Positions 14,331 through 53,644 of a stretch of 64,000 nt of DNA are shown here, one piece after another. Within the stretch, counting starts at the first letter, position 1, and every line of letters begins with the position of its first letter. The DNA is taken from assembly GCA_035221665.1 (NCBI GenBank), contig CM069141.1, forward strand, positions 47,244,001-47,308,000, written 5' to 3'. Source of the stretch: Okamejei kenojei. Lineage: Eukaryota. The notes under the pieces were generated by a model. That model saw only the letters and a list, made by a program, of their open reading frames with translations, was not told the origin of the DNA and searched no databases. The position numbers and the translations under genes were made by a program.

Positions 14331-14471
14331 TGGAGTCTAGGTGTAAAGGATAACCTCATATAATTGTCCATTCAGAATATTGAATGCTTTTGCCGTAATT
14401 CGATGGTACGACCAGTTCCCCGGTTTCGTCGAGCAGAGGCCCGATTTTGGAAAATATTTCAATGCGGAACA

Positions 14472-16868
14472 ATGGCGAATTCGGTGAAAAACAAAGGCGT
14501 TGCTTTCAAAACCTTCGCTTTCCTGATTCTGGTATGTACATCAGATTTGTGTGCCGGACAAATCCGCTATTCTATTCCCGAGGAATTGGAAGTAGGGGGT
14601 TTTGTTGGGAATATTGCTCAAGATTTGGAGATGAACGTACCGCAGTTGCATGCTCGTAAAATTCGGCTCACTTCCGAGGGCGCTGGACATTACATGAAGG
14701 TGAATTTGAATGATGGGATTTTGTCCATTCGTGAAAGAATCGACAGAGAGCAGGTCTGTGGACAAACATACGTCTGTACCATTCCTTTCGAAATAATACT
14801 GGAAAATCCTTTGGCATCGCAACGCGGGGAAGTGGAGGTTCTTGATATAAATGACAATTCGCCCAGTTTCAGGGATAGCAGCATTTCCTTACAGATAGCC
14901 GAAACGATTGCGCCAGGGGTTCGATTTCGGCTGGTGAGCGCGGAAGATCCTGACATTGGAATAAATACCATCGCTGCTTACACAATCAGTTCCAACGAGC
15001 ATTTTAGTCTAAAAACGCAAAGAACCGATGACGGTGTTACAATTGCAGAATTACTACTGGAGAAGCGTTTAGACCGAGAGCTGCAGTCATCCTTTCGACT
15101 GGCGCTCACCGCAACTGACGGTGGAATCCCTCAGAGATCAGGCACCGCTCAGATTCTTATCACTGTGGTGGACATAAATGATAATCCACCTGTATTCGAT
15201 CATGAAATTTATCGGGGTAGCGTAAAGGAGAACACACCTCAAGGCACGCTAGTGATGAAAGTCAACGCCATTGATTTGGACGAAGGGCCGAATGCCGAGT
15301 TAACATATTATTTTAGCAAGCTGTCCTCAGCAAGAGTTAAAGAATTGTTTACTTTGGACCCGCACACTGGGGAGATTCGGACCAAAGTAGGGCTAGATTT
15401 TGAGGAAACAAACAGCTATTCACTCGATATTGAAGCTGTGGACCATGGAGTACCTGCAATTGCTGGACACTCCAAATTCTTTATCGATGTAATTGATGTA
15501 AATGACAACGCACCAGAGATAAAGGTGACATCCACAAAACGCAAAATTCAGGAAAATGGTCCCCCAGGCACATTAATAACCTTGATCAATGTTATCGATC
15601 GCGATTCTGGAGAAAACGGGCGGTTTCACTGCGAGATACCAAAAAATATCCCATTTAGACTTCGAACGTCGTCCAAAAATCATTATGAGTTGATTACCAG
15701 TGAATCACTGGACCGTGAAAGTATCTCTGAGTATAACATACATTTTCTAGCTTGGGACATGGGATCACCGTCACTGTCAACAAATAAAACAATCCAGATT
15801 TCAATATCAGATGTAAACGATAACGCCCCACGTTTTGGCGAATCCTCTTACAACGTATATGTGATGGAGAACAATGCTCCGGGTACATCTATTTTCGCAG
15901 TGACTGCAAGCGATGTTGACCAGGCCCAGAATTCCTATGTTTCTTACTCCTTTAAGGAAAATCTTCTCCAAGAGTTTCCTGCGTCCAGGTACCTCAGCAT
16001 CAACTCGATAAACGGCACAATTTACGCACAACGTTCATTTGACTATGAGAAACTTAAACGCTTCCAGATCCATGTTCAAGCCCGTGACGCTGGTGTACCC
16101 CCACTAAGCAACAGTGCTACTGTGACTGTGATAATCCTGGATCAAAATGATAACTCTCCGGTAATTGTTTCACCAATACCACAGATGGGATCAGCAGCAG
16201 TGGTGATGCTGCCCCAAACAGCGAGCCAAGGGTACTTGATCACCAAGATCATAGCAACAGATGCAGATTCTGGTCAGAACGCACGGCTATCTTATCAGAT
16301 GCAAAGATCCACCGATCCCAGTTTGTTCAACGTTGGACAAACGTCAGGTGAAATCAGAACTGCCAGACCTATTTTGGAATCAGGTACGACCGCACATTCT
16401 CTCGTTATCTTGGTGAAAGACAATGGGCAGCCTTCGCTCTCCAGTACGGTTTCAATTCACATCACAACCGTGGAGAATATCACTGAAATAACTACTGAAA
16501 GCAGCAACTTCGTGGCAAAATCAGAATCTTTCTCTGATGCGAATCTTTACTTAATTGTATTTTTCGGTTGTACTTCCGTTTTCTTTCTCGTGGTTATCGT
16601 CCTGCTGATTGGCATCATGTGTAAACAGAGTAGAAATACCCTCGAAGAATACAATTCTTCAAGCTGTTGTTCCAGACCTGGAGGTTCTCGAGATGCGTTT
16701 CCTTGCAGGCTTGCAATGGATGAAACTTTACGCTATCGCGGGACAGGCCGGGTGCTCTCCGTCCCAGAACCACACCAATACTCGGTCTCTCTGTCTCCAG
16801 AATCAGCCAAGAGCGATTTTCTGTTTTTAAAGCCGTACGACGTTTCCACGTCCCAGGCCCCATGTTAA
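14472..16868 (+). CDS. Clustered protocadherin, intact (798 aa): signal peptide, 6 EC repeats, TM, short tail
   Basis: QIRYSIPEE, DRE/DFE/DYE and DxNDN motifs over six repeats, TM, SPESAKSDFLFLKP tail. Start placed at the MANS ATG shared with paralogs, not at the upstream non-ATG start in the ORF track. Confidence 0.96.
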   Translation: MANSVKNKGVAFKTFAFLILVCTSDLCAGQIRYSIPEELEVGGFVGNIAQDLEMNVPQLHARKIRLTSEGAGHYMKVNLNDGILSIRERIDREQVCGQTYVCTIPFEIILENPLASQRGEVEVLDINDNSPSFRDSSISLQIAETIAPGVRFRLVSAEDPDIGINTIAAYTISSNEHFSLKTQRTDDGVTIAELLLEKRLDRELQSSFRLALTATDGGIPQRSGTAQILITVVDINDNPPVFDHEIYRGSVKENTPQGTLVMKVNAIDLDEGPNAELTYYFSKLSSARVKELFTLDPHTGEIRTKVGLDFEETNSYSLDIEAVDHGVPAIAGHSKFFIDVIDVNDNAPEIKVTSTKRKIQENGPPGTLITLINVIDRDSGENGRFHCEIPKNIPFRLRTSSKNHYELITSESLDRESISEYNIHFLAWDMGSPSLSTNKTIQISISDVNDNAPRFGESSYNVYVMENNAPGTSIFAVTASDVDQAQNSYVSYSFKENLLQEFPASRYLSINSINGTIYAQRSFDYEKLKRFQIHVQARDAGVPPLSNSATVTVIILDQNDNSPVIVSPIPQMGSAAVVMLPQTASQGYLITKIIATDADSGQNARLSYQMQRSTDPSLFNVGQTSGEIRTARPILESGTTAHSLVILVKDNGQPSLSSTVSIHITTVENITEITTESSNFVAKSESFSDANLYLIVFFGCTSVFFLVVIVLLIGIMCKQSRNTLEEYNSSSCCSRPGGSRDAFPCRLAMDETLRYRGTGRVLSVPEPHQYSVSLSPESAKSDFLFLKPYDVSTSQAPC

Positions 16869-39598: not shown

Positions 39599-41195
39599 AT
39601 GGCGAATCCAGCGATAGACAACGCCATTGCTTTCAGAAGGGTTGCTTTCATAATTCTCAGGTGTATAACGGGGTTGTTACTCGGGCGTATTCGGTATTCT
39701 ATTCCCGTGGAAATGAACATAGGATCGTTTGTTGGGAATATCGCGGAACTTTCGAGACTGAATGTACCGCAATTGACGGCTCGCAAATTTCGTCTAACCT
39801 CTGATGAAGGCGGACAGTATCTGAAGATTAGTGTGGAGAATGGGGTTTTGACTGTTCGTGAAAAAAAAATCGATAATGAACATCTTTGTGGAGAAGCAAC
39901 TGCATGGAATATACCTTTTGAACTCATTTTGGAAAACCCTTTGATGGTGTATCGCGGGGTAGTGGTAATTCTAGACATAAATGACAATTCCTCAATGTTC
40001 CGGGGCTTCAGCTTTGTCTTACAAATGGCCGAAGCGATTTCACCTGGTGTACGCTTTCCTCTCGAGAACGCGGATGACCGCGATATTGGAATAATTACTG
40101 TCGCAGCTTACACAATCAGCTTCACTGAATATGTTACCCTGACAGTGCAGAACACTTAGCATGGTGTTGTTAATGTCGAGCTACAATTATAGAAACCATT
40201 GGACAGAGAGCGGCAAACAGCCATTCAGCATGTCCTGAACTCCCTCGAGATCCGGCACAACTCAAATTCTCATTACTGTAGTGGATGTAAAGGACAATCT
40301 ACATGTATTCTCTGAGACCATTTATAAGGGCAGGTTCTGAGAAAACCACACAAGGTACCTTGGTGCTGAAAGTCAAAGCAAGTGACTTGGACGAAGGCTT
40401 GAATGCCGAGCAAACATTTTCTTTCAGCAGCTTCGTTCCACCAATGGTTCTCAAATTGTTCCGTTTGGACGGTAACACCGGAGAGATCCGTGTTGATGCA
40501 TGGATAGATTACGAAAAAACATACAGTTATCCTCTGAACGTTCAGGCTGTGGACCACGGATCACCAACAAAGGTAGGACGATGTACAGTGATGATCACAA
40601 GGTCATTGATGAAAAGGAAAATGCACCCCGCATCAAATTGACTTCGGTTATGCCCGCGGTTCCCTAAAATACTCCACAGGGATCTTTGTAAATTGAATCA
40701 ATAGTATTGATCGCGATTCTGCAGAAAACGGACAGTTTCAATGTGACTTTCCGAAAAATACACCCGTTAGTCTTCGAACATCATCGAAAAATCATTCTGA
40801 GTTGATTACCAATGAGCCACTGGACCGTGAAGCTTTCGCTCAGTATGAAATAAATGCTTGGGATTTTGGGTCGATATCGCTGTCCAGAAATGAAACCACC
40901 ATGATTACAATATCTGATGTAAACGATAACACCCCGCAGTTGGCTGAATTATTTTACAACAGTGATGGAGAATACCGCTCTGTGTGCCTCTATTTTCGCA
41001 GTAACAGCAACGGCTCCTGAATTGAACCAGAATTCCTATGTTTCATGCTCTTTTCTGGAGGGACTTATCCGGGACTTGCCAGTGTCCAGTTACCTCAGCA
41101 TAAAGTCAATGAACGGCACAGTTTAAGCGCTGCATACCTTTGACTATGAGAAACTCTAAAAATTCCCGATCCATGTACAAGCTCGTGATGCCGGG
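39599..41195 (+). pseudogene. Protocadherin pseudogene EC1-EC5 (5' piece)
   Basis: MANPAIDNAI...RIRYSIPVE, TAG at 40157-40159, multiple frameshifts. Interrupted at cgt gat gcc ggg (RDAG). Confidence 0.93.
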
Positions 41196-41459
41196 TGTTG
41201 CACGAGCATTTTCGTGAATAGTCAGTAACGCATACCGCTGTGGCCATAGCGCTATGTTTAAAGTCGATAGCGCTATGGTTAAAACCCACAGCGCTGTGGC
41301 TGGTAGCGCTATGTTTAAAACCCACAGCGCTGTGGTAGGTAGCGCTATATTTACACCACATAACGCCACATCCATTAGCGCTTTATTTAGAGCCCAGAGC
41401 GCTGCAGCCGACAGCTCTTTGTTTACATTTCCATATACGGACAACGCTCTGTTTAACCC

Positions 41460-41758
41460 TTTACGGCAGCGCAGAGAAAGGCGGCAGAAGCGCGGCTGTC
41501 GAGGCTAAGGCTAAATAAATGCCCACACAGACCGGCACTACCCAGCATCTTCCTGACGAACGCCCGATCGCTCAGCAACAAGATGGACGAGCTGGAGCTG
41601 ATCAACGAGAAACACACAGCTGTGCAAACCTGATCGATTATGGTGATAACCGAGACTTGGCATCACGCTGGGATCCCGGACGAGGCCATCAGTCTGGCAG
41701 GCCGCACAGCGCACCGAGCCGACAGGAGCAGTAACTCTGGTAAGAGCAGAGGGGGGGT

Positions 41759-41796
<38 letters not shown>

Positions 41797-43998
41797 TATG
41801 CCAAAATGATGCACAAATGCAGTTGTCGTTGAGAGACACTGTTCAACAGACTTGCAGTTTATAACACTGAAATGCCGACCCTTCTATCTGCGCGGGTGTT
41901 CACAGCTGTTGTTACTATGGTTGTTTATAGTCCACCAAGCGAAGGCCTTAAGCTAGCACTGAACACCCTGCTAACAACCATCAACAAACTACAGACTGCA
42001 CACCCTGGTGGGATTTTCATCGTGGCTGGAGATTCAATCAGGGAAATCTAAAAGCTGTTCTCCCTAAATTCCACCAGCATGTCACATGTCCGACGAGAGG
42101 TCAAAATACATTGGATCATGTATACAGCAACATCAAGGATGGATGCAAAGCCTCCCCCTCCCTCACCTCGGCCAGTCTGACCACCAATCCATCTTTTTCA
42201 CCCCAGCATACAGACCTCTCATCGTGAAAACTAAGCCCGATTTGAGGTGAGTAAGGCAGAGCCTGCGCCTGCAGCCGCATCCAGCACTGACAACCTGGTA
42301 CTCGCTGTGAGCACAGAGGATGTCAGAAGAGTACTCCGGAGTGTCAACCCCAGGAAAGCTGCTGCCCCAGATGGCATCCCAGGGAGAGTACTGCTGTGCA
42401 GACCAGTTGGCGGAAGTATTTAGCGACATCTTTAACCTTTCTCTCTCAACATGCACTGTCCCTAAATGCTTCAAGGCTGCCACCATTGTGCCTGTTCCCA
42501 AAAAAAATCTATCACCAGCTTGAACGACTACAGACCTGTTACTCTCACTTCAACTGTGATGAAGTGCTTTGAGAAACTGGTCCTGGCCCACATTAAATCC
42601 TCACTCCACCCACCCTGGATCAACATCAGTTTACATACAGAGCCAACAGGTCAACAGAAGACACCATCAACATGGCTCTACATTCTGCACTGACTCATCT
42701 GGAGCACCCCAGCTCATATGTGAAGATGTTGTTTGTAGATTTCAGTTCTGCATTCAACACCATCATCCCCAGCAGAATGGTGGACAAACTGTTTGACCTG
42801 GGTGTAAATGGCAACACATGCAGATGGATCAAGGACTTCTTAACATGCCACCCACAGACTGTCAGGATGGGGTCCAATCATTCCCCAGTCCTGATGTCGC
42901 TAAATACCTCCGCCAGCTGGTCTGCACAGTCCAGCAGTACTCATTCCCTAGTCCTGACGCTCAGCACAGGAGCGCCACAAGGCTGTATGCTGAGTCCTAT
43001 TCTCTACACAATATACACTCATGACTGCACACCGACACACAGCACAGACCGGATCATTACGTTTGCAGATGACACGACTGTGCTAGGGCTGATAAATTAC
43101 AATGACGAGTCTGCCTACAGAGATGAAGTCCAAAAACTGACTGTCTGGTGCACTAAAAATAGCCTGGTACTCGACCTAACCAAAACAAAATAACTGGTTA
43201 TTGACTTCAGGAGGAGGAGAGAGGAACTTGCTCCTCTTTACATCAAAGGAGACATGGTGAAGAGAGTCACTGACTTTAACCTCCTGGGCACATACATCTC
43301 CCAAGACCTCACATGGACAGTGTACACCATCACTCTCGTAAAGAAGTCACAGCAGCGGCTATATTTCCTGAGGATTCTGTGGAGAGCAAACGTCTCACAG
43401 CAGCTGCTGCTGTCCTTCTACCAGTGCACCGTGGAAAGCATCCTCTCCTATGGCATGCAGGTGTGGTTTGCTAGCTGCACTGTGGCTGGAAGGAAGGCAC
43501 TACAGAGAGTTATTAAAACAGCACAGAGCATCACAAACGCTCAACTACCCTCCCTGGCAGACATTTACAAGGCCCGATGTTTACGTCGGGCCACAAACAT
43601 CACACAAGACTCATCCCACCCTGCCAACCACCTTTTCACCCACACTTGCAGACTAACTAACAGTTTCTACCCTCGTGCCATTAAAGAACTTAACTCAAAC
43701 AGATAACACCACGGGCAAAACAACACAATTCGGGGTGCGTTATATAAAAAATTGTCTGCTGGAGTGTGCAATATAATGTGCATCACTTTTATTATATATT
43801 GCTTATTTTATGCATTGATCTTGCGGTAAATGTAAATGTGAGAGTAAATGGTTGATTGTGTAATTGTGTTTTTGTTTTTTTTAAATCTTTTTATCTTGTG
43901 TATTTTATTGTATACCACTGAAGGAGATGCACATGAAATTTTGTTGTACAGTTGCTGTGCAATGACAATAAAACGTATTTGATTTGATTTGATTTGAT
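41460..43998 (+). mobile_element. Rex1/Babar LINE (APE + RT, internally deleted)
   Basis: PALPSIFLTNARSLSNKMDEL, LFVDFSSAFNTIIP, GAPQGCMLSP, FADDTTVLGLI, and an aatgacaataaa + (ttgat)n tail. Confidence 0.93.
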
Positions 43999-44136
43999 AG
44001 TGCCAAACAGGCAGCGCTGTATTACCTTTACGCACCAAGTCTGCAGCGCTGTGTGCATTATAATGCGCGCCATCTGTGCTGCTGTGCATTGCCTTACACG
44101 CCAGTCTGCGGCTGATAGCGCTTTTTTCCCGGGGGG

Positions 44137-46070
44137 GGTGGATTTACATTACTCACACACAGTGATTAGGATCCAGACTTTTATTAGCAATTCAGCATAG
44201 GTTACTTCATCTTAATACAGCTCAAAACTGAGAGAAAGGGAAAAAACCTTTCTATTAAACCTGTGGGCGGAGCCACTGTATGATATAACATGAGTGACAC
44301 TGATCTACATCCTCCCTCTTAAAGAACTAAATGTAAATACAAAACTATTGACTAAATAAGGCATGCATAGTGAATGATAAAAGCTGAAGGAAAGTCAAAC
44401 TTAGCGGACAAAGGACTGGACAAGCTAGATGCAGGAAAAATGTTCCCAATGTTGGGCGAGTCCAGAACCAGAACCACAGTTTTAGAATAAAGGGGAGGTA
44501 ATTTAAGACTGAGGTGAGAGAAAACGTTTTCACTCATAGAGTTGTGAATTTGTAGAATTATCTGCCACAGAAGGCAGCGAAGGCCAAATCACTGGATGGA
44601 TTTAAGAGAGAGTTAAATAGAGCTCAAGGGGCTAGTGGAATCAAGAGATATGGGGAGAAGACAGGCACGGGTTATTAAAGTTACAAGTTGTAGTCAGATA
44701 ACAAACAGAAGCACTGATAGTGACCAGTCCCTGGTCGTGACTAGTCTCTGGTTTTCGTATTATCTTCAATTCAGATAAAGACATCATGTTACCCCGAGCA
44801 TCTGTGTCGATTTTCAGAAAATAATTCTTGCCATTAACGAGCAAAGCGACCTTGGGATCTTGAAGTTTTGAGGCAAGTCAGAGAGGGAATGTGCATCCAT
44901 ATCAAGATCCTCGTTAGCAGACAGCAAGTCCCTGGGAGCCGTTTGAGCACTCAGAGTCCATGTTCCCATGGTCGAGTGAATTGACAGATTGTCTTGTTTG
45001 AAAGCTGTTGCTACACGAGCGGCAGTATCGGAAAAATGGTTGCATTTTTTACAGAAGTGACAAAGCTTTCCATAAGCTGGGCAATGGTCATGGACAGAAA
45101 CATGCGAACCCCCACAATAACACATTTGTTTTTTAGTTTAATGGCAGACCTGTTGGGCACTTGAGGAAATTGGCGAGAAGCTTGGCAAAGTGCGCCAACA
45201 ACTTAAACATCGTGGGCTGTGTGGGGGCCATGTCTCAAGATTTTAGCATCAGCTATTTTAGCAATGCGACAGCTGTTTTCAGCAGTCACCAGAGTAAGTT
45301 CGGTATCGCGTATCAGCTCATCGCGTAATTTATCATTCAGTATACCATAGACGAGATGATCACGAACTAAACTGTCACATAAATCACCAAAGGCACATCT
45401 ACTGGCAATGTATTTCAAAGCACTGACGTATGTTTCAACAGACTTGCCATTCCTTTGGCTTCACGAAATATATATATATGTCTCTCCATTACTAGATTAG
45501 TAGGTAACTGACATAACTGTCAGAATTTGTTTAGCAGGCAGTCGGGGTCCCGGATGGACTGAGCGGTAGCAATCTGGATACCAGCCAGATCAAATCTAAC
45601 TGGTTGATAATGAAATCTTCTGGCACGTTGAGCAGCTTCTGTGCCCGCTAGGTTGAGGAGAATAGAGGCACGAACATTTGGAGCAGCAACCGGGTGAGCC
45701 GCATGTATATAAATGGTGAAATCTTCTTTAAATATGCGCCACCATTTGGCAAGGTCTTCATCAAACACAAAATATTCTGGTTTTCTGAGAAAAGAGGACA
45801 TGGTAAAACATGTACTGGGCAAAAAAAAAAAAACTAAAATAAATGCAATATAATTAGGCAAGGAGTGAGTCCGACTTCTCTGACACCATGTTGGATTGAC
45901 ATAACTCACACACAGTGAATAGGATCCAAAGACCTTTGTTAGCAATTCGGCACAGGTAATGTCATCTTAACATACAGTTCAAGACTGAGAGAGAAAGGGA
46001 AAAAGGCTTTATATTAAACCTGTGGGCAGAGCCACAGTATGACTCATAACATGAGTGACACGGACCTCCA
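44137..46070 (-). mobile_element. Gypsy LTR retrotransposon, pol-deleted
   Basis: ~175-bp LTRs at ~44137-44309 and 45889-46070. On the minus strand: PBS tggtgtcag and PPT aagagggagga, gag with CCHC-like knuckles (CYCGGSH...HCPAYGKLCHFCKKCNHF) and a protease remnant LKIDTDA. A CR1 fragment lies inside at ~44415-44675. Confidence 0.9.
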
Positions 46071-46314
46071 AGTGGGAGGGGGAGGGGGGGGGGGGGTTGC
46101 TGTGATGCAGTCCCCTGCCATTTGTTATAGTTTGAATTTGGGAGCAGCACTATTGGCCAGGATTTACCGGCGGTTATTTCAACACCTGATTTCTTACCCG
46201 TATAAAGGCAGGCGCAAGTAAGCCAGAAGTTAGTTCAAGTTCATGTACGAGAGGGGTTCACCGCCAGGCTGAGTCGCGATCAGCGCTGCGGATGGAGGCC
46301 GAGAGAGAGAGAGC

Positions 46315-46358
<44 letters not shown>

Positions 46359-46475
46359 AAAGAGACGTGCGCTGCTGTAAAACGGACCCCGCGCCCACCA
46401 AGACAAGTATTATTTTTGTTCTCTCTCTTGCCAATAAATCTGATGTGTTAATGTACGAGAGGGGCTCCCCGACAG

Positions 46476-46672
46476 TCGGAGGCTCGAGGATCGCTTGAAG
46501 CCATGAGTTCTGGGCTGCTGCGGGCTGTGCCAATCGGGTGTCCTCACCAAGCTGTTCATGGATATGGTGTCTCCGGAGGAATCCGCAATCACCAGGTTGT
46601 GTGAAGCGGGGTGAACCGGCCCAGGTCGGATACGGAGCAGGTCAAAGCCCCCATGTGCCCATCAGTAATCGG
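46476..46672 (+). ncRNA. RN7SL: 7SL (SRP) RNA-derived fragment, truncated at both ends; likely a non-functional copy
   Basis: gaggatcgcttgaagccatgagttctgggctg...atcgggtgtcc...atatggtg...caccaggttg...ggggtgaaccggcccaggtcggatacggagcaggtcaaa...atcagta is colinear with the vertebrate 7SL S domain as I recall it. Confidence 0.93.
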
Positions 46673-46726
46673 CAGGATCTGACGAATAGAATAGAAAATA
46701 TTTGGTTAAAAGTAACAGCAAACAAG

Positions 46727-47139
46727 ATGGCGCTGTTCCAGGCCAAGCACCCCCGCAACAAGCTGCAGCCGTTCGGCGCTTTGGCATCAACAGACAACAC
46801 ATCAGCAGTGTGGAACAGTGAAACTGGTGAAAGAATCAAGCGTCTTAAAGTCACACATCCTTTGTGAGTACATATTATCCAACCCAACGGGGACAACAGT
46901 CGGTCTGTACAGGAAGCAACGACGAAACATTGAAGTTAGGGGACATTCGGAAGAAGGCTGTAATCCATAACTTTCAAAACACGCACCAAGTACTGGCAGC
47001 GCCATTTAATGACACAAACGATCAAATTATCTCTGGTGGTATTGATGACGGCATTAAGGATTGGGACCTCAGACAAAACAAGTTAATTTCTACCATGCGT
47101 GGTCATATAGACTCGGTGACTGGTTTGACCCTGAGTGGG
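46727..47139 (+). pseudogene. SNRNP40: Intronless fragment of U5 snRNP 40 kDa WD40 protein
   Basis: ASTDNTSAVWNSETGERIKRLK/HTSFVSTYYPTQRGQQSVCTGSNDETLKLGDIRKKAVIHNFQNTHQVLAAPFNDTNDQIISGGIDDGIKDWDLRQNKLISTMRGHIDSVTGLTLS matches SNRNP40 (ASTDKTVAVWDSETGERVKRLKGHTSFVN...IISGGIDNDIKVWDLRQNKL...RGHADSVTGLSLS). One-base frameshift near 46850. Confidence 0.92.
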
Positions 47140-47283
47140 GTTAAAGGGAGCATCACCAACCTCGCTGACCATTAGTACATACCATTACGACTATGTATGT
47201 GCGGACTGGCATCACGATCGCGTGGAGTTTATTACAACCTTTGGGCTGGATGTGACGGTAACAAGACTGATCGTGGGGTGGAA

Positions 47284-47638
47284 TGTTATGCGAGAATTTT
47301 CCTGAACAGTCTGTGGCCCATAGCGCTGTGGCAACAACGCTATTTTATAGCCCAGAGCGCTATGTTTAAAGCCCACGGCGCCGTGGCTGGTAGCGCTATA
47401 TTTAAACCCCATAGAGCTGCAGCCACTAGCGCTATATTTAGAGCCCATAGCGCTACAGCCGACAGCTCTGTTTAAATTCCCATGCGTTAAGCCGACAGCG
47501 GTCTACGCGCCACACCGGCAGCGCTGTGAGTATTACCTTTACGCGCCAAGTTTGTAACACTGTATGTATTGTAATGCGCGCCAAGTCTGTTGCGCTGTGT
47601 ATTGCTGGGATGCAGTCCCCTGTCATTGGTTACAGTTT

Positions 47639-47692
<54 letters not shown>

Positions 47693-47809
47693 CCATGACA
47701 AGTATTGTTTTTGTCCTCACTTGCCCATAAAACGGATTTGCAACTAAACGGGCGAGTGAGCCTTTGTCTGTTCTTCTAGTCAGATCCCTGAACCTGTTCC
47801 CTTGTATCA
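47284..47809 (+). repeat. 3' LTR of the cargo-carrying element
   Basis: TGTTA...TATCA, with AGCGCT-rich tandem subrepeats and a (GA)n tract as in the 5' copy. Confidence 0.82.
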
Positions 47810-48183
47810 CCGGTTTGCCTCCACGGTGAATGTGATCGTCCTGGATCAAAATAACATCAGGTCGGTAATTGTTTCACCAGGACAGTGTGGGTCAGCAGCA
47901 GTGGAAGGCGTTCCCCAGTCCGCCTGTCAAGGGTACTTGGTCACCAAGATAATGGCAAATGATGGAGACCCTGGTCAGGACGCAAGCTATTTTATCAGAT
48001 AGTGAAATTATACCGATCCCACTTTGTTGAACGTTGGGCAACATTCCGGTGAAATCAGAACAGTGCAGTATTTTCCAGTCCGATTCTACTACGCAAGCGT
48101 TGTTAATCTTCGTTAAAGTTTATGGGCAGCCAAGCCTCCCCAGCACGGCTACAGTACACATTGCAGTTTTGAAGTACATCACA
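47810..48183 (+). pseudogene. Protocadherin pseudogene EC5 end-EC6 (3' piece); TM and tail lost
   Basis: STVNVIVLDQNN...QGYLVTKIMANDGDPGQDA...HIAVLKYIT, then (GA)n and a CR1 tail. Confidence 0.9.
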
Positions 48184-51105: not shown

Positions 51106-51250
51106 TTGTGAGTCCATGAAAAGAAAGATAAACGTTGTGCATTTAAGCTTTTAAAAAGTGCATACATTGTTGAATTGTTTACTGGTAAGTCGTACTGAGC
51201 AGTTTATTGAAGCTGATGCACGGGTTTGGGAAAATATTTGAACGCGGAAA

Positions 51251-53644
51251 ATGGCGAATCCGGAATTCGTCAACGCCATTGCGCTCAGTCGGACTGCCTT
51301 CATGATTCTGGGGTATGTAACGGGATTGATTCTTGGGCAGATTCGGTACTCCATTCCAGAGGAAATTAATATAGGGTCGTTTATTGGGAATATCGCCGAA
51401 GATTTGAGACTGAATTTCCCGCAATTGTCGGCTCGTGAATTGCGTCTAACCTCCGATGATGGCGAACAGTATCTGAACGTTAACGTGGAGAATGGGATTT
51501 TGTCTGTTCGTGAAAGAATCGACAGGGAGCATATTTGTGGAGAAGCAACCGTGTGCAATATACCTTTTGAAATCATACTGGAAAACCCTGTGATGGTGTA
51601 TCACGGGGTTGTGGAAATTGTTGACGTGAATGACAATTCCCCCACGTTTCGGGACACCAGCTTTGTCTTACAAATATCGGAGGCGATGACGCCTGGTTTA
51701 CGCTTCCCCCTCGAAAACGCACAGGATCGCGATATTGGTATAAATACCGTGGCTGCTTACACAATCAGTTCCAATGAATACTTTAGCCTAAACGCGCAGA
51801 GAACTGAGTATGGTGTTATAAATGTGGAGCTACAGTTAGATAAACCATTGGACAGAGAGCTGCAGTCAGCCTTTCAGCTTGTTCTCACAGCGAACGACGG
51901 CGGAAACCCTCAGCGATCCGGCACAACTCAAATTCACATCACTGTGGTGGATGTGAACGATAATCCACCTGTATTCTTTCATGAAATTTATAAAGCTAGA
52001 TTGAGAGAAGACGCACCCCAAAGTACCTTGGTGTTGAAAGTCAAAGCAAGTGACTTGGATGAAGGTTTAAATGCTGAGCTAACCTATTCTTTCAGCAGCT
52101 TAGTTCCACCGAGATTTCTCCAATTTTTCAGTTTGAACCCTCATACTGGGGAGATTCGTGTTGAAGGAGAATTAGATTATGAACAAGCAAACAGCTATTC
52201 TCTGAATATTCAAGCTGAGGATCACGGATCACCCGCAGTTATTGGGCACTCCATGGTCTTAATCGAGGTAACTGATGTAAACGACAATGCACCAGAGATA
52301 AAAGTGAAACCATTTAAGAATACAATTCCGGAAAATGTTCCACCGGGAACGATGATAACTTTGATTAATGTCATTGATCGCGACTCTGGTGAAAACGGAC
52401 AGTTTCTATGTGACATTCCGAAAAATACACCTTTCAGTCTTCGAACGTCATCAAAAAATTATTACGAGTTGATTACCAGTGAGCCGCTGGACCGTGAAGC
52501 CGTTGCTGAGTATAATATACAATTTGTAGCTCGGGACTTTGGGTTGCCTTCACTGTCAAGAAATAAAACCATCCAGATTGCAATATCTGATGTAAACGAT
52601 AACGCACCACGGTTTAGTGAATTATCCTACAACGCATATGTTATGGAGAATAACGCTCCGGGTACCTCTACTTTCGCAGTAACTGCAACAGATCCTGATT
52701 TGAAACAGAATTCTTATGTTTCTTACGCCTTTCAGGAGGATCTTATCCAGAACTTTCCAGTGTCCAGTTATCTCAGCATTAACTCAATTAACGGCACAAT
52801 TTACGCGCTGCGTTCCTTTGACTATGAGAAACTCAAGAGCTTCCAGATCCATGTACAAGCCCGTGACGCCGGGGCGCCTCCCCTAAGCAGCAGCGCCACG
52901 GTGAATGTGATCATCTTGGATCAAAATGACAACGCGCCGGTAATTGTTTCACCTTCAGAAAAGAGTGGATCGGAAGCAACGGAGATCGTGCCCCACTCAG
53001 CGGGTGAAGGGTACTTAGTCACCAAGATAATGGCAACTGATGCAGATTCTGGTCAGAACGCACGGCTCTTTTATCAAATAGTGAAATCTACCGATCCCAC
53101 TTTGTTCAAGGTTGGACAAAATTCCGGTGAAATTAGAACAGCGCGCAGTATTTCTCAGTCCGATTCTATTACGCAAACGCTGTTAATCTTGGTTAAAGAT
53201 AATGGGCAGCCAACTCTCTCCAGCACAACAACAATGCATATTACGGTTTTGGAGAACATCACTGAAAACGTTTCTGAAAATGATCAGTTATTGAGAAGCT
53301 CAGTTCATTTCAACGACTTAAATTTTTATTTGATAATCATGTTCGGTTGCACTTCCGCTCTCTTTCTAATGATTATCATTATGCTCATTGGCATTAAATG
53401 CAAGCAGAGCATGAGTGTCTCTCGGGAATATAATTCAAGGCGTTTTTGTTACAATGGCGGGGATTCTCGCGACACCTTTACTCGAAGATCTGGAATGGAA
53501 GAAACGTTACGGTATCCTGGTACGGGCCCGATGGTCCGCGTACCGGAAGCCAACCATTATTCAGTTTGTTTGTCTCCTGAATCAGCGAAGAGCGATTTTC
53601 TCTTTTTGAAGCCATGCAGCGCTCCGATAGCTCAGGCGCATTGA
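51251..53644 (+). CDS. Clustered protocadherin, intact (797 aa)
   Basis: Signal peptide, six EC repeats, TM and SPESAKSDFLFLKPCSAPIAQAH*. Confidence 0.97.
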   Translation: MANPEFVNAIALSRTAFMILGYVTGLILGQIRYSIPEEINIGSFIGNIAEDLRLNFPQLSARELRLTSDDGEQYLNVNVENGILSVRERIDREHICGEATVCNIPFEIILENPVMVYHGVVEIVDVNDNSPTFRDTSFVLQISEAMTPGLRFPLENAQDRDIGINTVAAYTISSNEYFSLNAQRTEYGVINVELQLDKPLDRELQSAFQLVLTANDGGNPQRSGTTQIHITVVDVNDNPPVFFHEIYKARLREDAPQSTLVLKVKASDLDEGLNAELTYSFSSLVPPRFLQFFSLNPHTGEIRVEGELDYEQANSYSLNIQAEDHGSPAVIGHSMVLIEVTDVNDNAPEIKVKPFKNTIPENVPPGTMITLINVIDRDSGENGQFLCDIPKNTPFSLRTSSKNYYELITSEPLDREAVAEYNIQFVARDFGLPSLSRNKTIQIAISDVNDNAPRFSELSYNAYVMENNAPGTSTFAVTATDPDLKQNSYVSYAFQEDLIQNFPVSSYLSINSINGTIYALRSFDYEKLKSFQIHVQARDAGAPPLSSSATVNVIILDQNDNAPVIVSPSEKSGSEATEIVPHSAGEGYLVTKIMATDADSGQNARLFYQIVKSTDPTLFKVGQNSGEIRTARSISQSDSITQTLLILVKDNGQPTLSSTTTMHITVLENITENVSENDQLLRSSVHFNDLNFYLIIMFGCTSALFLMIIIMLIGIKCKQSMSVSREYNSRRFCYNGGDSRDTFTRRSGMEETLRYPGTGPMVRVPEANHYSVCLSPESAKSDFLFLKPCSAPIAQAH

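Follow-up and report, generated by a model that had tools for sequence, protein, structure and literature searches.

A skate endogenous retrovirus family carrying spliced SNRNP40, with one decayed copy probably patched with 7SL RNA by template switching

Introduction

An LTR element of the skate Okamejei kenojei contains pieces of two host RNAs, 7SL RNA and the mRNA of SNRNP40, which raises the question of whether both were captured together and whether 7SL serves a family of such elements. The element lies in a 64,000-nt stretch of contig CM069141.1 (GCA_035221665.1, positions 47,244,001 to 47,308,000), the whole of which is called the window here. A first-pass annotation of the window had proposed a joint capture of the two RNAs in one cDNA and, if the element was multicopy, a TRIM-like family with 7SL as a packaging or localisation signal. 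Co-packaging of 7SL is known from laboratory retroviruses, according to a review (PMC4997597).

Our analysis points to a different history. The element is probably a decayed member of a defective endogenous retrovirus (ERV) family, in which spliced SNRNP40 stands for gag, pol and most of env at about 80 loci, with a 7SL patch that is specific to this copy and likely arose by template switching of reverse transcriptase (RT). The two captures are separate events, that of SNRNP40 having occurred once in the family ancestor and that of 7SL in this copy alone.

Results

Layout of the element and its insertion site

The element started with TG at 41196, ended with CA at 47809 and was enclosed by a target-site duplication (TSD), CCGGG/CCGGT, matching at 4 of 5 positions, as first annotated. 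The predicted insertion into a protocadherin exon was also borne out, in what is now a pseudo-exon: against paralogous cadherin exons (52873 / 52896), the left flank stopped and the right flank restarted at neighbouring points, with an extra loss of 16 nt adjoining the right TSD. Two nested insertions of later date account for 4.46 kb of the 6.6-kb span. The features are as follows (strand in brackets).

41191-41195 (no strand): left TSD CCGGG, within the protocadherin pseudo-exon, placed by paralogue alignment
41196-41465 (+): 5' LTR, U3 segment A, with TGT start and 36-bp repeats
41466-43997 (+): later nested LINE, foreign to the family, with RT remnant (Pfam RVT_1, E 4e-18) and GATTT tail
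43998-44138 (+): 5' LTR, U3 segment B
44139-46069 (-): later nested LTR element, unrelated, with its own LTRs of about 170 bp, 84% alike; ends approximate
46070-46473 (+): remainder of the 5' LTR, with the rest of U3, TATA at 46201, and a first copy of R that contains (GA)n and AATAAA (46433); 27 nt from the start of a second R copy close the segment, and U5 is absent
46474-46672 (+): 7SL RNA nt 41-237, in this copy only
46665-46678 (+): remnant of the primer-binding site (PBS) for tRNA-Ser(AGA), last 14 of 18 nt, overlapping the 7SL end by 8 nt
46679-46724 (+): viral leader, common to cargo-free proviruses
46725-47138 (+): spliced SNRNP40 cDNA spanning roughly codons 10 to 237, less 264 nt deleted internally
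47139-47272 (+): tail of the env transmembrane (TM) gene, internally deleted
47273-47283 (+): polypurine tract (PPT), the same in relatives
47284-47809 (+): 3' LTR, U3 with 36-bp repeats, TATA/R start deleted internally, U5 kept
47810-47814 (no strand): right TSD CCGGT

The two LTRs of the first-pass annotation were confirmed, with 84.5% identity over 386 aligned nt, but they are only partly colinear, the 5' LTR lacking U5 and the 3' LTR lacking the TATA/R-start stretch. Its polypurine tract was found directly before the 3' LTR, and both cargoes were in sense orientation to TATA and AATAAA, with neither poly(A) nor a separate TSD at the 7SL or SNRNP40 cargo of this copy. The interior had been described as free of recognisable gag, pol and env, with about 140 bp left unassigned before the PPT; those 140 bp proved to be the env TM tail. 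The 14-nt PBS remnant between 7SL and SNRNP40 had been missed. Gag-like fragments, among them one in the nested LTR element, matched no Pfam family; we take the remnant in the nested element to be gag-like from its motifs. Two independent solo LTRs, the alternative named at the outset, were rejected, since one TSD encloses the whole, the PBS remnant and PPT lie inside, and the layout is that of the family.

The SNRNP40 cargo and its family

The best PDB match of the cargo translation was U5-40K (E 2.7e-42), and the cargo aligned without introns to exons 1, 4, 5 and 6 of the parent SNRNP40 gene, in agreement with the roughly 410 bp of spliced SNRNP40 first annotated. A spliced origin was indicated by 35 of 71 aligned family copies, which span all five exon junctions. 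The form LTR-PBS-SNRNP40-env tail-LTR was present at at least 79 loci (a hand tally over several searches, in which all family counts are lower bounds). A search with the element interior gave 123 candidates, and all 40 that were scored were SNRNP40 plus env copies, with 7SL in the window only; protein searches of the genome gave 92 and 124 matches. LTR, leader or env adjoined the cargo at 71 of 75 fetched loci (67/70 and 4/5). Both ends were found at 29 of 57 loci, with 12 perfect 5-bp TSDs, all distinct, and nine more matching at 4/5; no TSD of 4 bp and one of 6 bp were seen. TGT starts (25/29) and ACA ends (24/29) prevailed among these loci. Segmental duplication as the general source of the copies was ruled out by the differing TSDs. 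Two loci 17 kb apart (L152 and L153) were sisters at 100/99 and are probably one duplicated copy.

Divergence of the family LTRs was about 0.16, and the cargo tree (57 rows, copies with 280 or fewer of 345 columns excluded) was star-like and weakly resolved, with 4 of 54 inner branches starred. The 264-nt cargo deletion is common to a subfamily (net 264 nt in 7 copies), which this tree did not show as a single clade. Both cargo junctions were common to family copies: the cargo/env joint lay at a 9/11-nt match and was in frame, and the leader/cargo joint showed at most 1 nt of microhomology.

The parent retrovirus

The family PBS is complementary to tRNA-Ser(AGA) over 18 nt. Cargo-free relatives shared LTR, PBS and leader and matched Pfam RVP, RVT_1, RNase_H and TLV_coat, with pro, RT, RNase H and env all broken. 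The TLV_coat matches of the env TM (E 8e-4 to 0.04) were under the curated cut-off; the comparison with syncytin-1 gave E 1e-6, and the alignment for one locus (L168) showed the ISD and CX6CC. Foamy virus RTs were the best PDB matches of the RT, YIDD was present in one of three RT fragments (L164), and dUTPase was listed for two of seven homologues. Judged by best matches and motifs (Ser PBS, TGT..ACA, 5-bp TSD, gamma-type TM), the parent would be a class III-like retrovirus of the ERV-S type. In the search for the autonomous partner that the first-pass annotation had called for, relatives with the same LTR came to light. The five cargo-free PBS-leader loci and 13 more relatives were each broken or incomplete, and none was an intact helper provirus.

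On the preferred reading, RT of this virus would have crossed from env to a co-packaged SNRNP40 mRNA at the 9/11-nt match and then back to the leader. The product would be LTR-PBS-leader-SNRNP40 (part of exons 1-6)-env tail-PPT-LTR, whose junctions are those observed in the copies. This cargo form, with all cis signals, re-integrated many times in a burst, presumably with helper proteins supplied in trans, and further deletions founded subfamilies. The near lack of microhomology at the leader/SNRNP40 junction counts against this course, as does the failure to meet an intact helper among the relatives examined.

Decay of the cargo and its reading frame

The copies decayed neutrally. Second positions and four-fold sites changed equally, at 0.048 and 0.049 for A/T and 0.22 and 0.22 for CpG; terminal branches were neutral, and internal branches were few. 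Singleton pN/pS was 1.06, and selection on the cargo, read from the shared-variant ratios of 0.62-0.69, was not upheld, since the low ratios disappeared once CpG and base type were controlled for. Nothing indicates that the element has a function at present.

These values bear on the idea that spread was aided by one open frame, joining a WD40 fragment of SNRNP40, truncated at both termini, to the membrane anchor of env, as a v-gene-like protein or as a shield of the RNA against nonsense decay. We regard it as improbable. The in-frame cargo/env joint agrees with it, as do a small common indel (net -3 in 34 of 44 copies), the subfamily deletion of 264 nt and a common env deletion that preserves the frame relative to one copy (L086). 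So does the makeup of the 39 PBS-leader matches, 33 (and likely one more) with cargo and 5 without, though the search pattern came from a cargo copy. Besides the neutral decay, the idea has against it that another copy (L133) departs from the env frame and that a deletion between repeats sharing a codon phase preserves the frame anyway. Three non-synonymous codons and one synonymous codon separate the deletion subfamily from other copies, and the commonest family codons differ from host SNRNP40 at 13 non-synonymous places. A related view, which we hold to be just as improbable, sees an endogenised transducing retrovirus of class III-like type. Fusion of an SNRNP40 WD40 fragment, in frame, to the Env anchor would have favoured its spread until the helper was outnumbered, and one copy would be a germline fossil of 7SL packaging. 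If true, packaging of 7SL by class III retroviruses goes back tens of millions of years in cartilaginous fish.

The 7SL patch

The annotated 7SL piece of about 200 bp matched Rfam RF00017 (69.6 bits, E 3.7e-17, Rfam positions 93-255), 0.4 bits under the gathering threshold, with no match in the window at the threshold itself. It corresponds to nt 41-237 of the 298-nt 7SL gene of this genome at 90.5% identity (17 substitutions in 197 nt and a 2-nt indel), with most of the S domain kept. These differences make it unlikely that the assembly has joined a functional 7SL gene to the element by mistake. The piece lacked nt 1-40, a TSD of its own and a LINE tail. A 7SL-derived SINE (SINE1) was rejected: nt 1-40 and the tail are absent, and the genome has eight 7SL-like places in total. 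All eight were scored, and the seven others lay outside the ERV family.

The expectation that the element is multicopy held for the SNRNP40 form but not for 7SL, which was absent from all 78 other cargo loci (70, plus L041, L045 and L142, plus five checked with the 5' part of 7SL only) and from 41 relative or LTR loci, three of them also within the 78. Since the cargo joints are family-wide and 7SL is confined to this copy, capture of both RNAs in one cDNA is not supported. A TRIM- or Cassandra-like family with 7SL and SNRNP40 as its interior and 7SL as its signal has next to no probability left and is refuted within this assembly, barring many unassembled copies with the same joints. It can point to a 7SL piece that is truly present with most of its S domain; the piece sits where U5 and PBS belong, and the env remnant marks a retroviral origin, not an env-less retrotransposon. 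Cassandra TRIMs are short non-autonomous LTR elements with Pol III 5S sequence in both LTRs of all copies. The present element is likewise a short non-autonomous LTR element with Pol III RNA sequence, here at one site in one copy; its interior holds an env tail, and the Pol III RNA is not family-wide. Because the SNRNP40 form spread to about 80 sites and 7SL is in one copy only, the locus is a gene-capture fossil and not a member of a 7SL-dependent family.

At the 7SL piece the copy lacks about 200 nt of R/U5 together with the opening 4 nt of its PBS, in a near size-neutral exchange (about 191 nt gained, about 199 nt lost). Inspection of the junctions, as first suggested, revealed an exact 8-nt microhomology at the 7SL/PBS joint, formed by the first 8 nt of the PBS remnant, and a 7/8 microhomology at the R/7SL joint, read from the first R copy in the window and from L035 (6/8 in other copies). 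The chance of 8 exact was 34/300000 and that of a 7/8 match 245/100000. An 8-nt match to 7SL occurs in 102 of 2338 18-mers of one family copy, so the PBS position lifts the odds only about tenfold by our estimate.

The best reading of these joints is an aberrant strand transfer via co-packaged 7SL that gave a dead-end provirus. Minus-strand DNA at the PBS would have paired over 8 nt with 7SL instead of plus-strand strong-stop DNA, some 190 nt of 7SL would have been copied, and R would have been regained at the 7/8 match. With both outer LTR ends intact, the patched copy would then have integrated; its mobility likely ended there, and it would have had no offspring, since U5 and part of the PBS had given way to 7SL. 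Neutral decay and the two nested insertions followed. Mis-priming of tRNA-Ser on 7SL was rejected, because it would place 7SL in both LTRs and the 3' LTR keeps U5.

With the same family history, 7SL might instead have entered the provirus after integration, either through repair of a DNA break templated by 7SL RNA or cDNA, with microhomology on each side, or through a deletion-causing event driven by a LINE. DNA repair can also make microhomology-flanked patches, which counts against strand transfer, and templated repair is compatible with the two microhomologies and the near size-neutral swap. The locus later took up two further insertions and lost part of its 3' LTR, and two other truncated 7SL copies in the genome lead into repeat tails, so non-retroviral RTs copy 7SL here. 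Against this entry stand the missing poly(A), TSD and LINE tail, the sense orientation, a 3' joint within the 18-nt PBS, which is the strand-transfer site, and the agreement of the divergences (17/197 nt for 7SL; 30/388 for the cargo from its own subfamily). Taken together, later entry seems unlikely. The single, non-autonomous LTR insertion with an intronless host mRNA and RT template-switch junctions, as first annotated, is supported.

Discussion

The skate family is a large natural case of a retrovirus that made a repeat family from one housekeeping mRNA in a cartilaginous fish. A preprint counts 14,081 retrocopies in cartilaginous fishes and links them to non-LTR elements (bioRxiv 10.64898/2026.06.26.734816). 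Retrocopy surveys usually credit LINEs, and the family raises the question whether the top shark and ray retrocopy parents are also ERV-borne. If the 7SL patch was made in reverse transcription, it would be fossil evidence of 7SL co-packaging in class III-like fish viruses; the finding offers no evidence that 7SL functions in the element or that the host benefits. In the literature searched, largely open-access papers, we found no report of an ERV carrying SNRNP40 or of a provirus patched with 7SL in nature; the supplementary data of the VGP retrocopy preprint may list these copies. ERV gene capture with re-amplification is already known (crocodilian ERVs, FAM8A1); what is unusual here is the scale and the natural 7SL patch.

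The comparisons below follow the available portions of the cited texts. The crocodilian gene-capturing ERVs CrocERV29 (KIT ligand, 9 copies) and CrocERV31 (nectin3, 6 copies) resemble the skate family as an old non-mammalian ERV lineage with spliced host mRNA in several copies; they have intact ORFs, purifying selection and a kept pol, whereas the skate family has at least 79 loci, a partial CDS in place of gag-pol and most of env, and neutral decay (PMC4299795). In the LTR-mediated retroposition of Tan et al. 2016, where HERV-K/FAM8A1 and maize Bs1 are cited, partial mRNA likewise lies between the halves of an LTR element with microhomology at the joints and no poly(A); the product can retropose again in non-autonomous form, and multi-source chimeras are occasional, one mouse case including an Alu (PMC5131818). 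The skate family shows the same traits, an intronless partial mRNA replacing the internal genes and the same joints at dispersed sites (12 different perfect TSDs at 29 loci). It differs in a far larger secondary amplification, an env-bearing parent and a second cargo that is 7SL itself, at U5/PBS and not in the coding region (PMC5131818).

XtERV-S and HERV-S share with it the Ser PBS, TGT..ACA, 5-bp TSD, YIDD RT, a class I-like TM with ISD and CX6CC, and many deleted non-autonomous copies that keep PBS, leader and PPT; the skate family, likened to them by motifs and not by tree, has a skate-like host, a host cargo and no intact copy found (PMC8278194; PMC5753468). Like acutely transducing retroviruses, it combines a defective genome with host cDNA in frame with a viral gene. 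The closest counterpart of the patch is a laboratory retroviral recombinant with 7SL (Hajjar and Linial 1993, as cited in PMC4997597), in which 7SL was patched into the reverse transcript by 'patch repair' over fortuitous microhomology, whereas the present copy is natural, germline-fixed and old, and belongs to a class III-like virus of cartilaginous fish.

Structure of the element and identity of its cargoes

The element interrupting the protocadherin exon began with TG at 41196 and ended with CA at 47809, and was enclosed by the target-site duplication (TSD) pair CCGGG (left) and CCGGT (right), as the first-pass annotation had claimed. Both flanks aligned to adjoining positions of paralogous cadherin exons within the window, with an interruption by a 16-nt loss next to the right TSD, and the host exon contained stop codons. 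Of the total span of 6614 bp, 2532 bp was a nested LINE and about 1931 bp a nested unrelated LTR element, both located within the 5' LTR. Without these insertions the element was ~2.15 kb, in the size range of typical family copies (1258-4198 bp in 21 TSD-bounded copies). Its LTRs, compared segment by segment, were 84.5% identical (K2P 0.175).

14364-16865, open single-exon cadherin frame, ~800 aa
32526-34970, open single-exon cadherin frame, ~800 aa
41196-47809, LTR element
44139-46069 (minus strand), nested LTR element lacking pol, its LTRs ~170 bp long, with a gag-like remnant and a tRNA-type primer site of its own
46474-46672, 7SL nt 41-237, 90.5% identical to the two full genes of the genome
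46725-47138, SNRNP40
51242-53641, open single-exon cadherin frame, ~800 aa

The three open frames lie near the disrupted exon, and the cadherin frames of the window form a protocadherin-like cluster with some members intact and some broken. The nested pol-less element represents a second non-autonomous family.

The ~200 bp of 7SL and the spliced SNRNP40 first proposed for the interior were both recovered. In the latter, a deletion of 264 nt and two splice joints, both exact, connect exon 1 with exons 4-6. The parent SNRNP40 gene lies on a different contig with GT-AG introns, and its exons 1-6, when translated, matched a protein labelled Amblyraja radiata without a difference across 249 aa, which marks the genome as skate-like.

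The SNRNP40-bearing family

With the interior as query against its own genome, all 40 scored matches (of 123 candidates) carried SNRNP40, and all except the window began downstream of the 7SL part. Protein searches of the genome gave 92 and 124 matches, and hand-grouping of the genome, protein and PBS-leader matches yielded a lower bound of 79 loci, the window being one of them. An LTR, leader or env piece adjoined the cargo at 71 of the 75 fetched loci tested. Both ends were found at 29 of 57 loci, with 12 perfect 5-bp TSDs, no two alike, and nine more matching at 4/5. The suspected mobilised family stood as to multiple copies with different TSDs and fell as to 7SL, which was absent from 78/78 other cargo loci.

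Most copies held exons 1-6, and 35 of 71 crossed all five exon junctions. The cargo joints were common to all copies examined: at the 3' joint (cargo/env) host and env matched at 9/11 nt, in frame, while the overlap at the 5' joint (leader/cargo) was at most 1 nt. SNRNP40 was captured once, and serial deletions followed. Locus L086 retained more env than the remaining copies, and the 264-nt deletion was common to seven copies, window included. A minimal copy (L142, G000:C21) consisted of PBS-leader and ~60 nt of SNRNP40 exon 4, followed immediately by LTR R.

LTR-LTR K2P had a median of 0.16 (range 0.12-0.21, n=11), and the median divergence of copies from the commonest letter per column was 7% (n=69). 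A burst of amplification soon after capture is likely, since the cargo tree was star-like and the host branch only 0.043 long. At slow rates, none of them skate-specific, this divergence would mean an age of at least tens of millions of years.

After insertion, the cargo decayed neutrally. Singleton pN/pS was 1.06, second-position and four-fold rates were equal class by class, and 68 of 71 aligned copies carried a frameshifting indel. Selection for an SNRNP40-env open frame could be argued from the four shared changes that kept the frame (the cargo/env joint, a net -3 indel present in 34/44 copies, the 264-nt deletion and an env deletion) and from the greater number of cargo than cargo-free forms; however, in most copies shown a frame opened at the viral start upstream of the cargo is closed by a stop six codons on, subfamily changes were three non-synonymous against one synonymous, and locus L133 departed from the env frame. 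With the neutral decay, these observations make such selection improbable.

The retroviral parent

The parent is a retrovirus. In normal copies U5 was followed by two bases and an 18-nt PBS, complementary to tRNA-Ser(AGA) genes, the commonest form occurring in 14/42. The ~140 bp before the PPT, originally left unassigned in an interior said to lack recognisable env, proved to be env TM, which extends further in other copies and which shows, in L086 and in relatives, immunosuppressive-domain and CX6CC-type motifs. Cargo-free proviruses accounted for 5 of 39 PBS-leader matches, and a search with one of the five turned up further ones. Their natural fragments matched RVP, RVT_1, RNase_H and TLV_coat, and the nearest PDB matches of their RT were foamy RTs; no intact cargo-free provirus was found, all examined being broken. 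XtERV-S, as described in PMC8278194, shares with this parent a Ser PBS, TGT..ACA, a 5-bp TSD, YIDD and a class I-like TM, and an XtERV-S-type placement is suggested by these features, not by a tree.

The cargo-free relatives (L143-L147, L162-L175) were also internally deleted in varied ways; L143 kept gag-pro-like sequence and the env tail without pol. Many family LTRs, apparently solo or 3' LTRs (L026-L045), had a doubled R region, and the doubled-R joint motif occurred in 4/57 cargo loci.

Origin of the 7SL patch

An Rfam search of the genome, with 25 candidates scored, found, besides the window, two 7SL genes, one diverged copy and two that are truncated, and a DNA search scored 8/8 candidates; in neither search did any 7SL-like sequence other than the window's lie within this LTR family. 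The 5' LTR of the window belongs to the doubled-R type. 7SL begins 27 nt inside the second R, with 7/8 nt alike in the two at this joint (245 of 100000 random trials), and ends within the PBS at 8 nt exactly common to the 7SL gene and the PBS (34 of 300000 trials). The loss came to about 199 nt (six natural LTRs have 173-227 nt from this point to the LTR end, to which 6 nt are added) and the gain to about 191 nt of 7SL, with U5 retained in the 3' LTR.

Normal retroviral reverse transcription yields two equal LTRs, yet U5 and PBS were lost only on the 5' side, which suggests that the second strand transfer went wrong. At this step minus-strand DNA terminates in a PBS copy; it would have annealed to co-packaged 7SL, and synthesis on 7SL would have run to nt 41 and then rejoined R. 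The 7SL piece and the cargo were similarly diverged (17/197 and 30/388), which is consistent with capture of 7SL at insertion; alternatively, 7SL may have entered the provirus by repair after integration. According to a review (PMC4997597), retroviruses package 7SL, and one laboratory recombinant retrovirus had 7SL patched in.

Two truncated 7SL copies (L024:1447-1735 and L025:1459-1752, 98-99% to the genes) abutted repeat sequence directly. The L024 repeat matched one occurring several times in the window, and the sequence beside the L025 copy resembles a SINE/LINE tail; both are possibly 7SL-LINE template-switch chimeras. At L179, L180 (G000:C8) and L181 (G000:C5) lay two 7SL fragments of ~100 nt (82%) and one longer, diverged 7SL-like sequence, which is 27 kb away from a full 7SL gene; none of the three belongs to this LTR family.

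Comparison with known systems

The family is not the TRIM- or Cassandra-like one proposed at first, given the retroviral parent with env and 7SL in 0/78 other cargo loci. In its mechanism and by membership the element is a case of LTR-mediated retroposition with secondary spread (PMC5131818) and of ERV gene capture (PMC4299795). The ERV gene captures in PMC4299795 number 9 and 6 copies, against at least 79 loci here. Searches of the openly accessible literature, a scope outside which Repbase and subscription papers fall, listed no earlier description. What is new is the scale, the host group and the natural 7SL patch at the PBS. The top retrocopy parents reported in cartilaginous fishes are MIPOL1, SUDS3, SDF2L1, SLU7 and ZNF276; these are unusual parents for LINE-made retrocopies, and their retrocopies might be ERV-borne families like that of SNRNP40.
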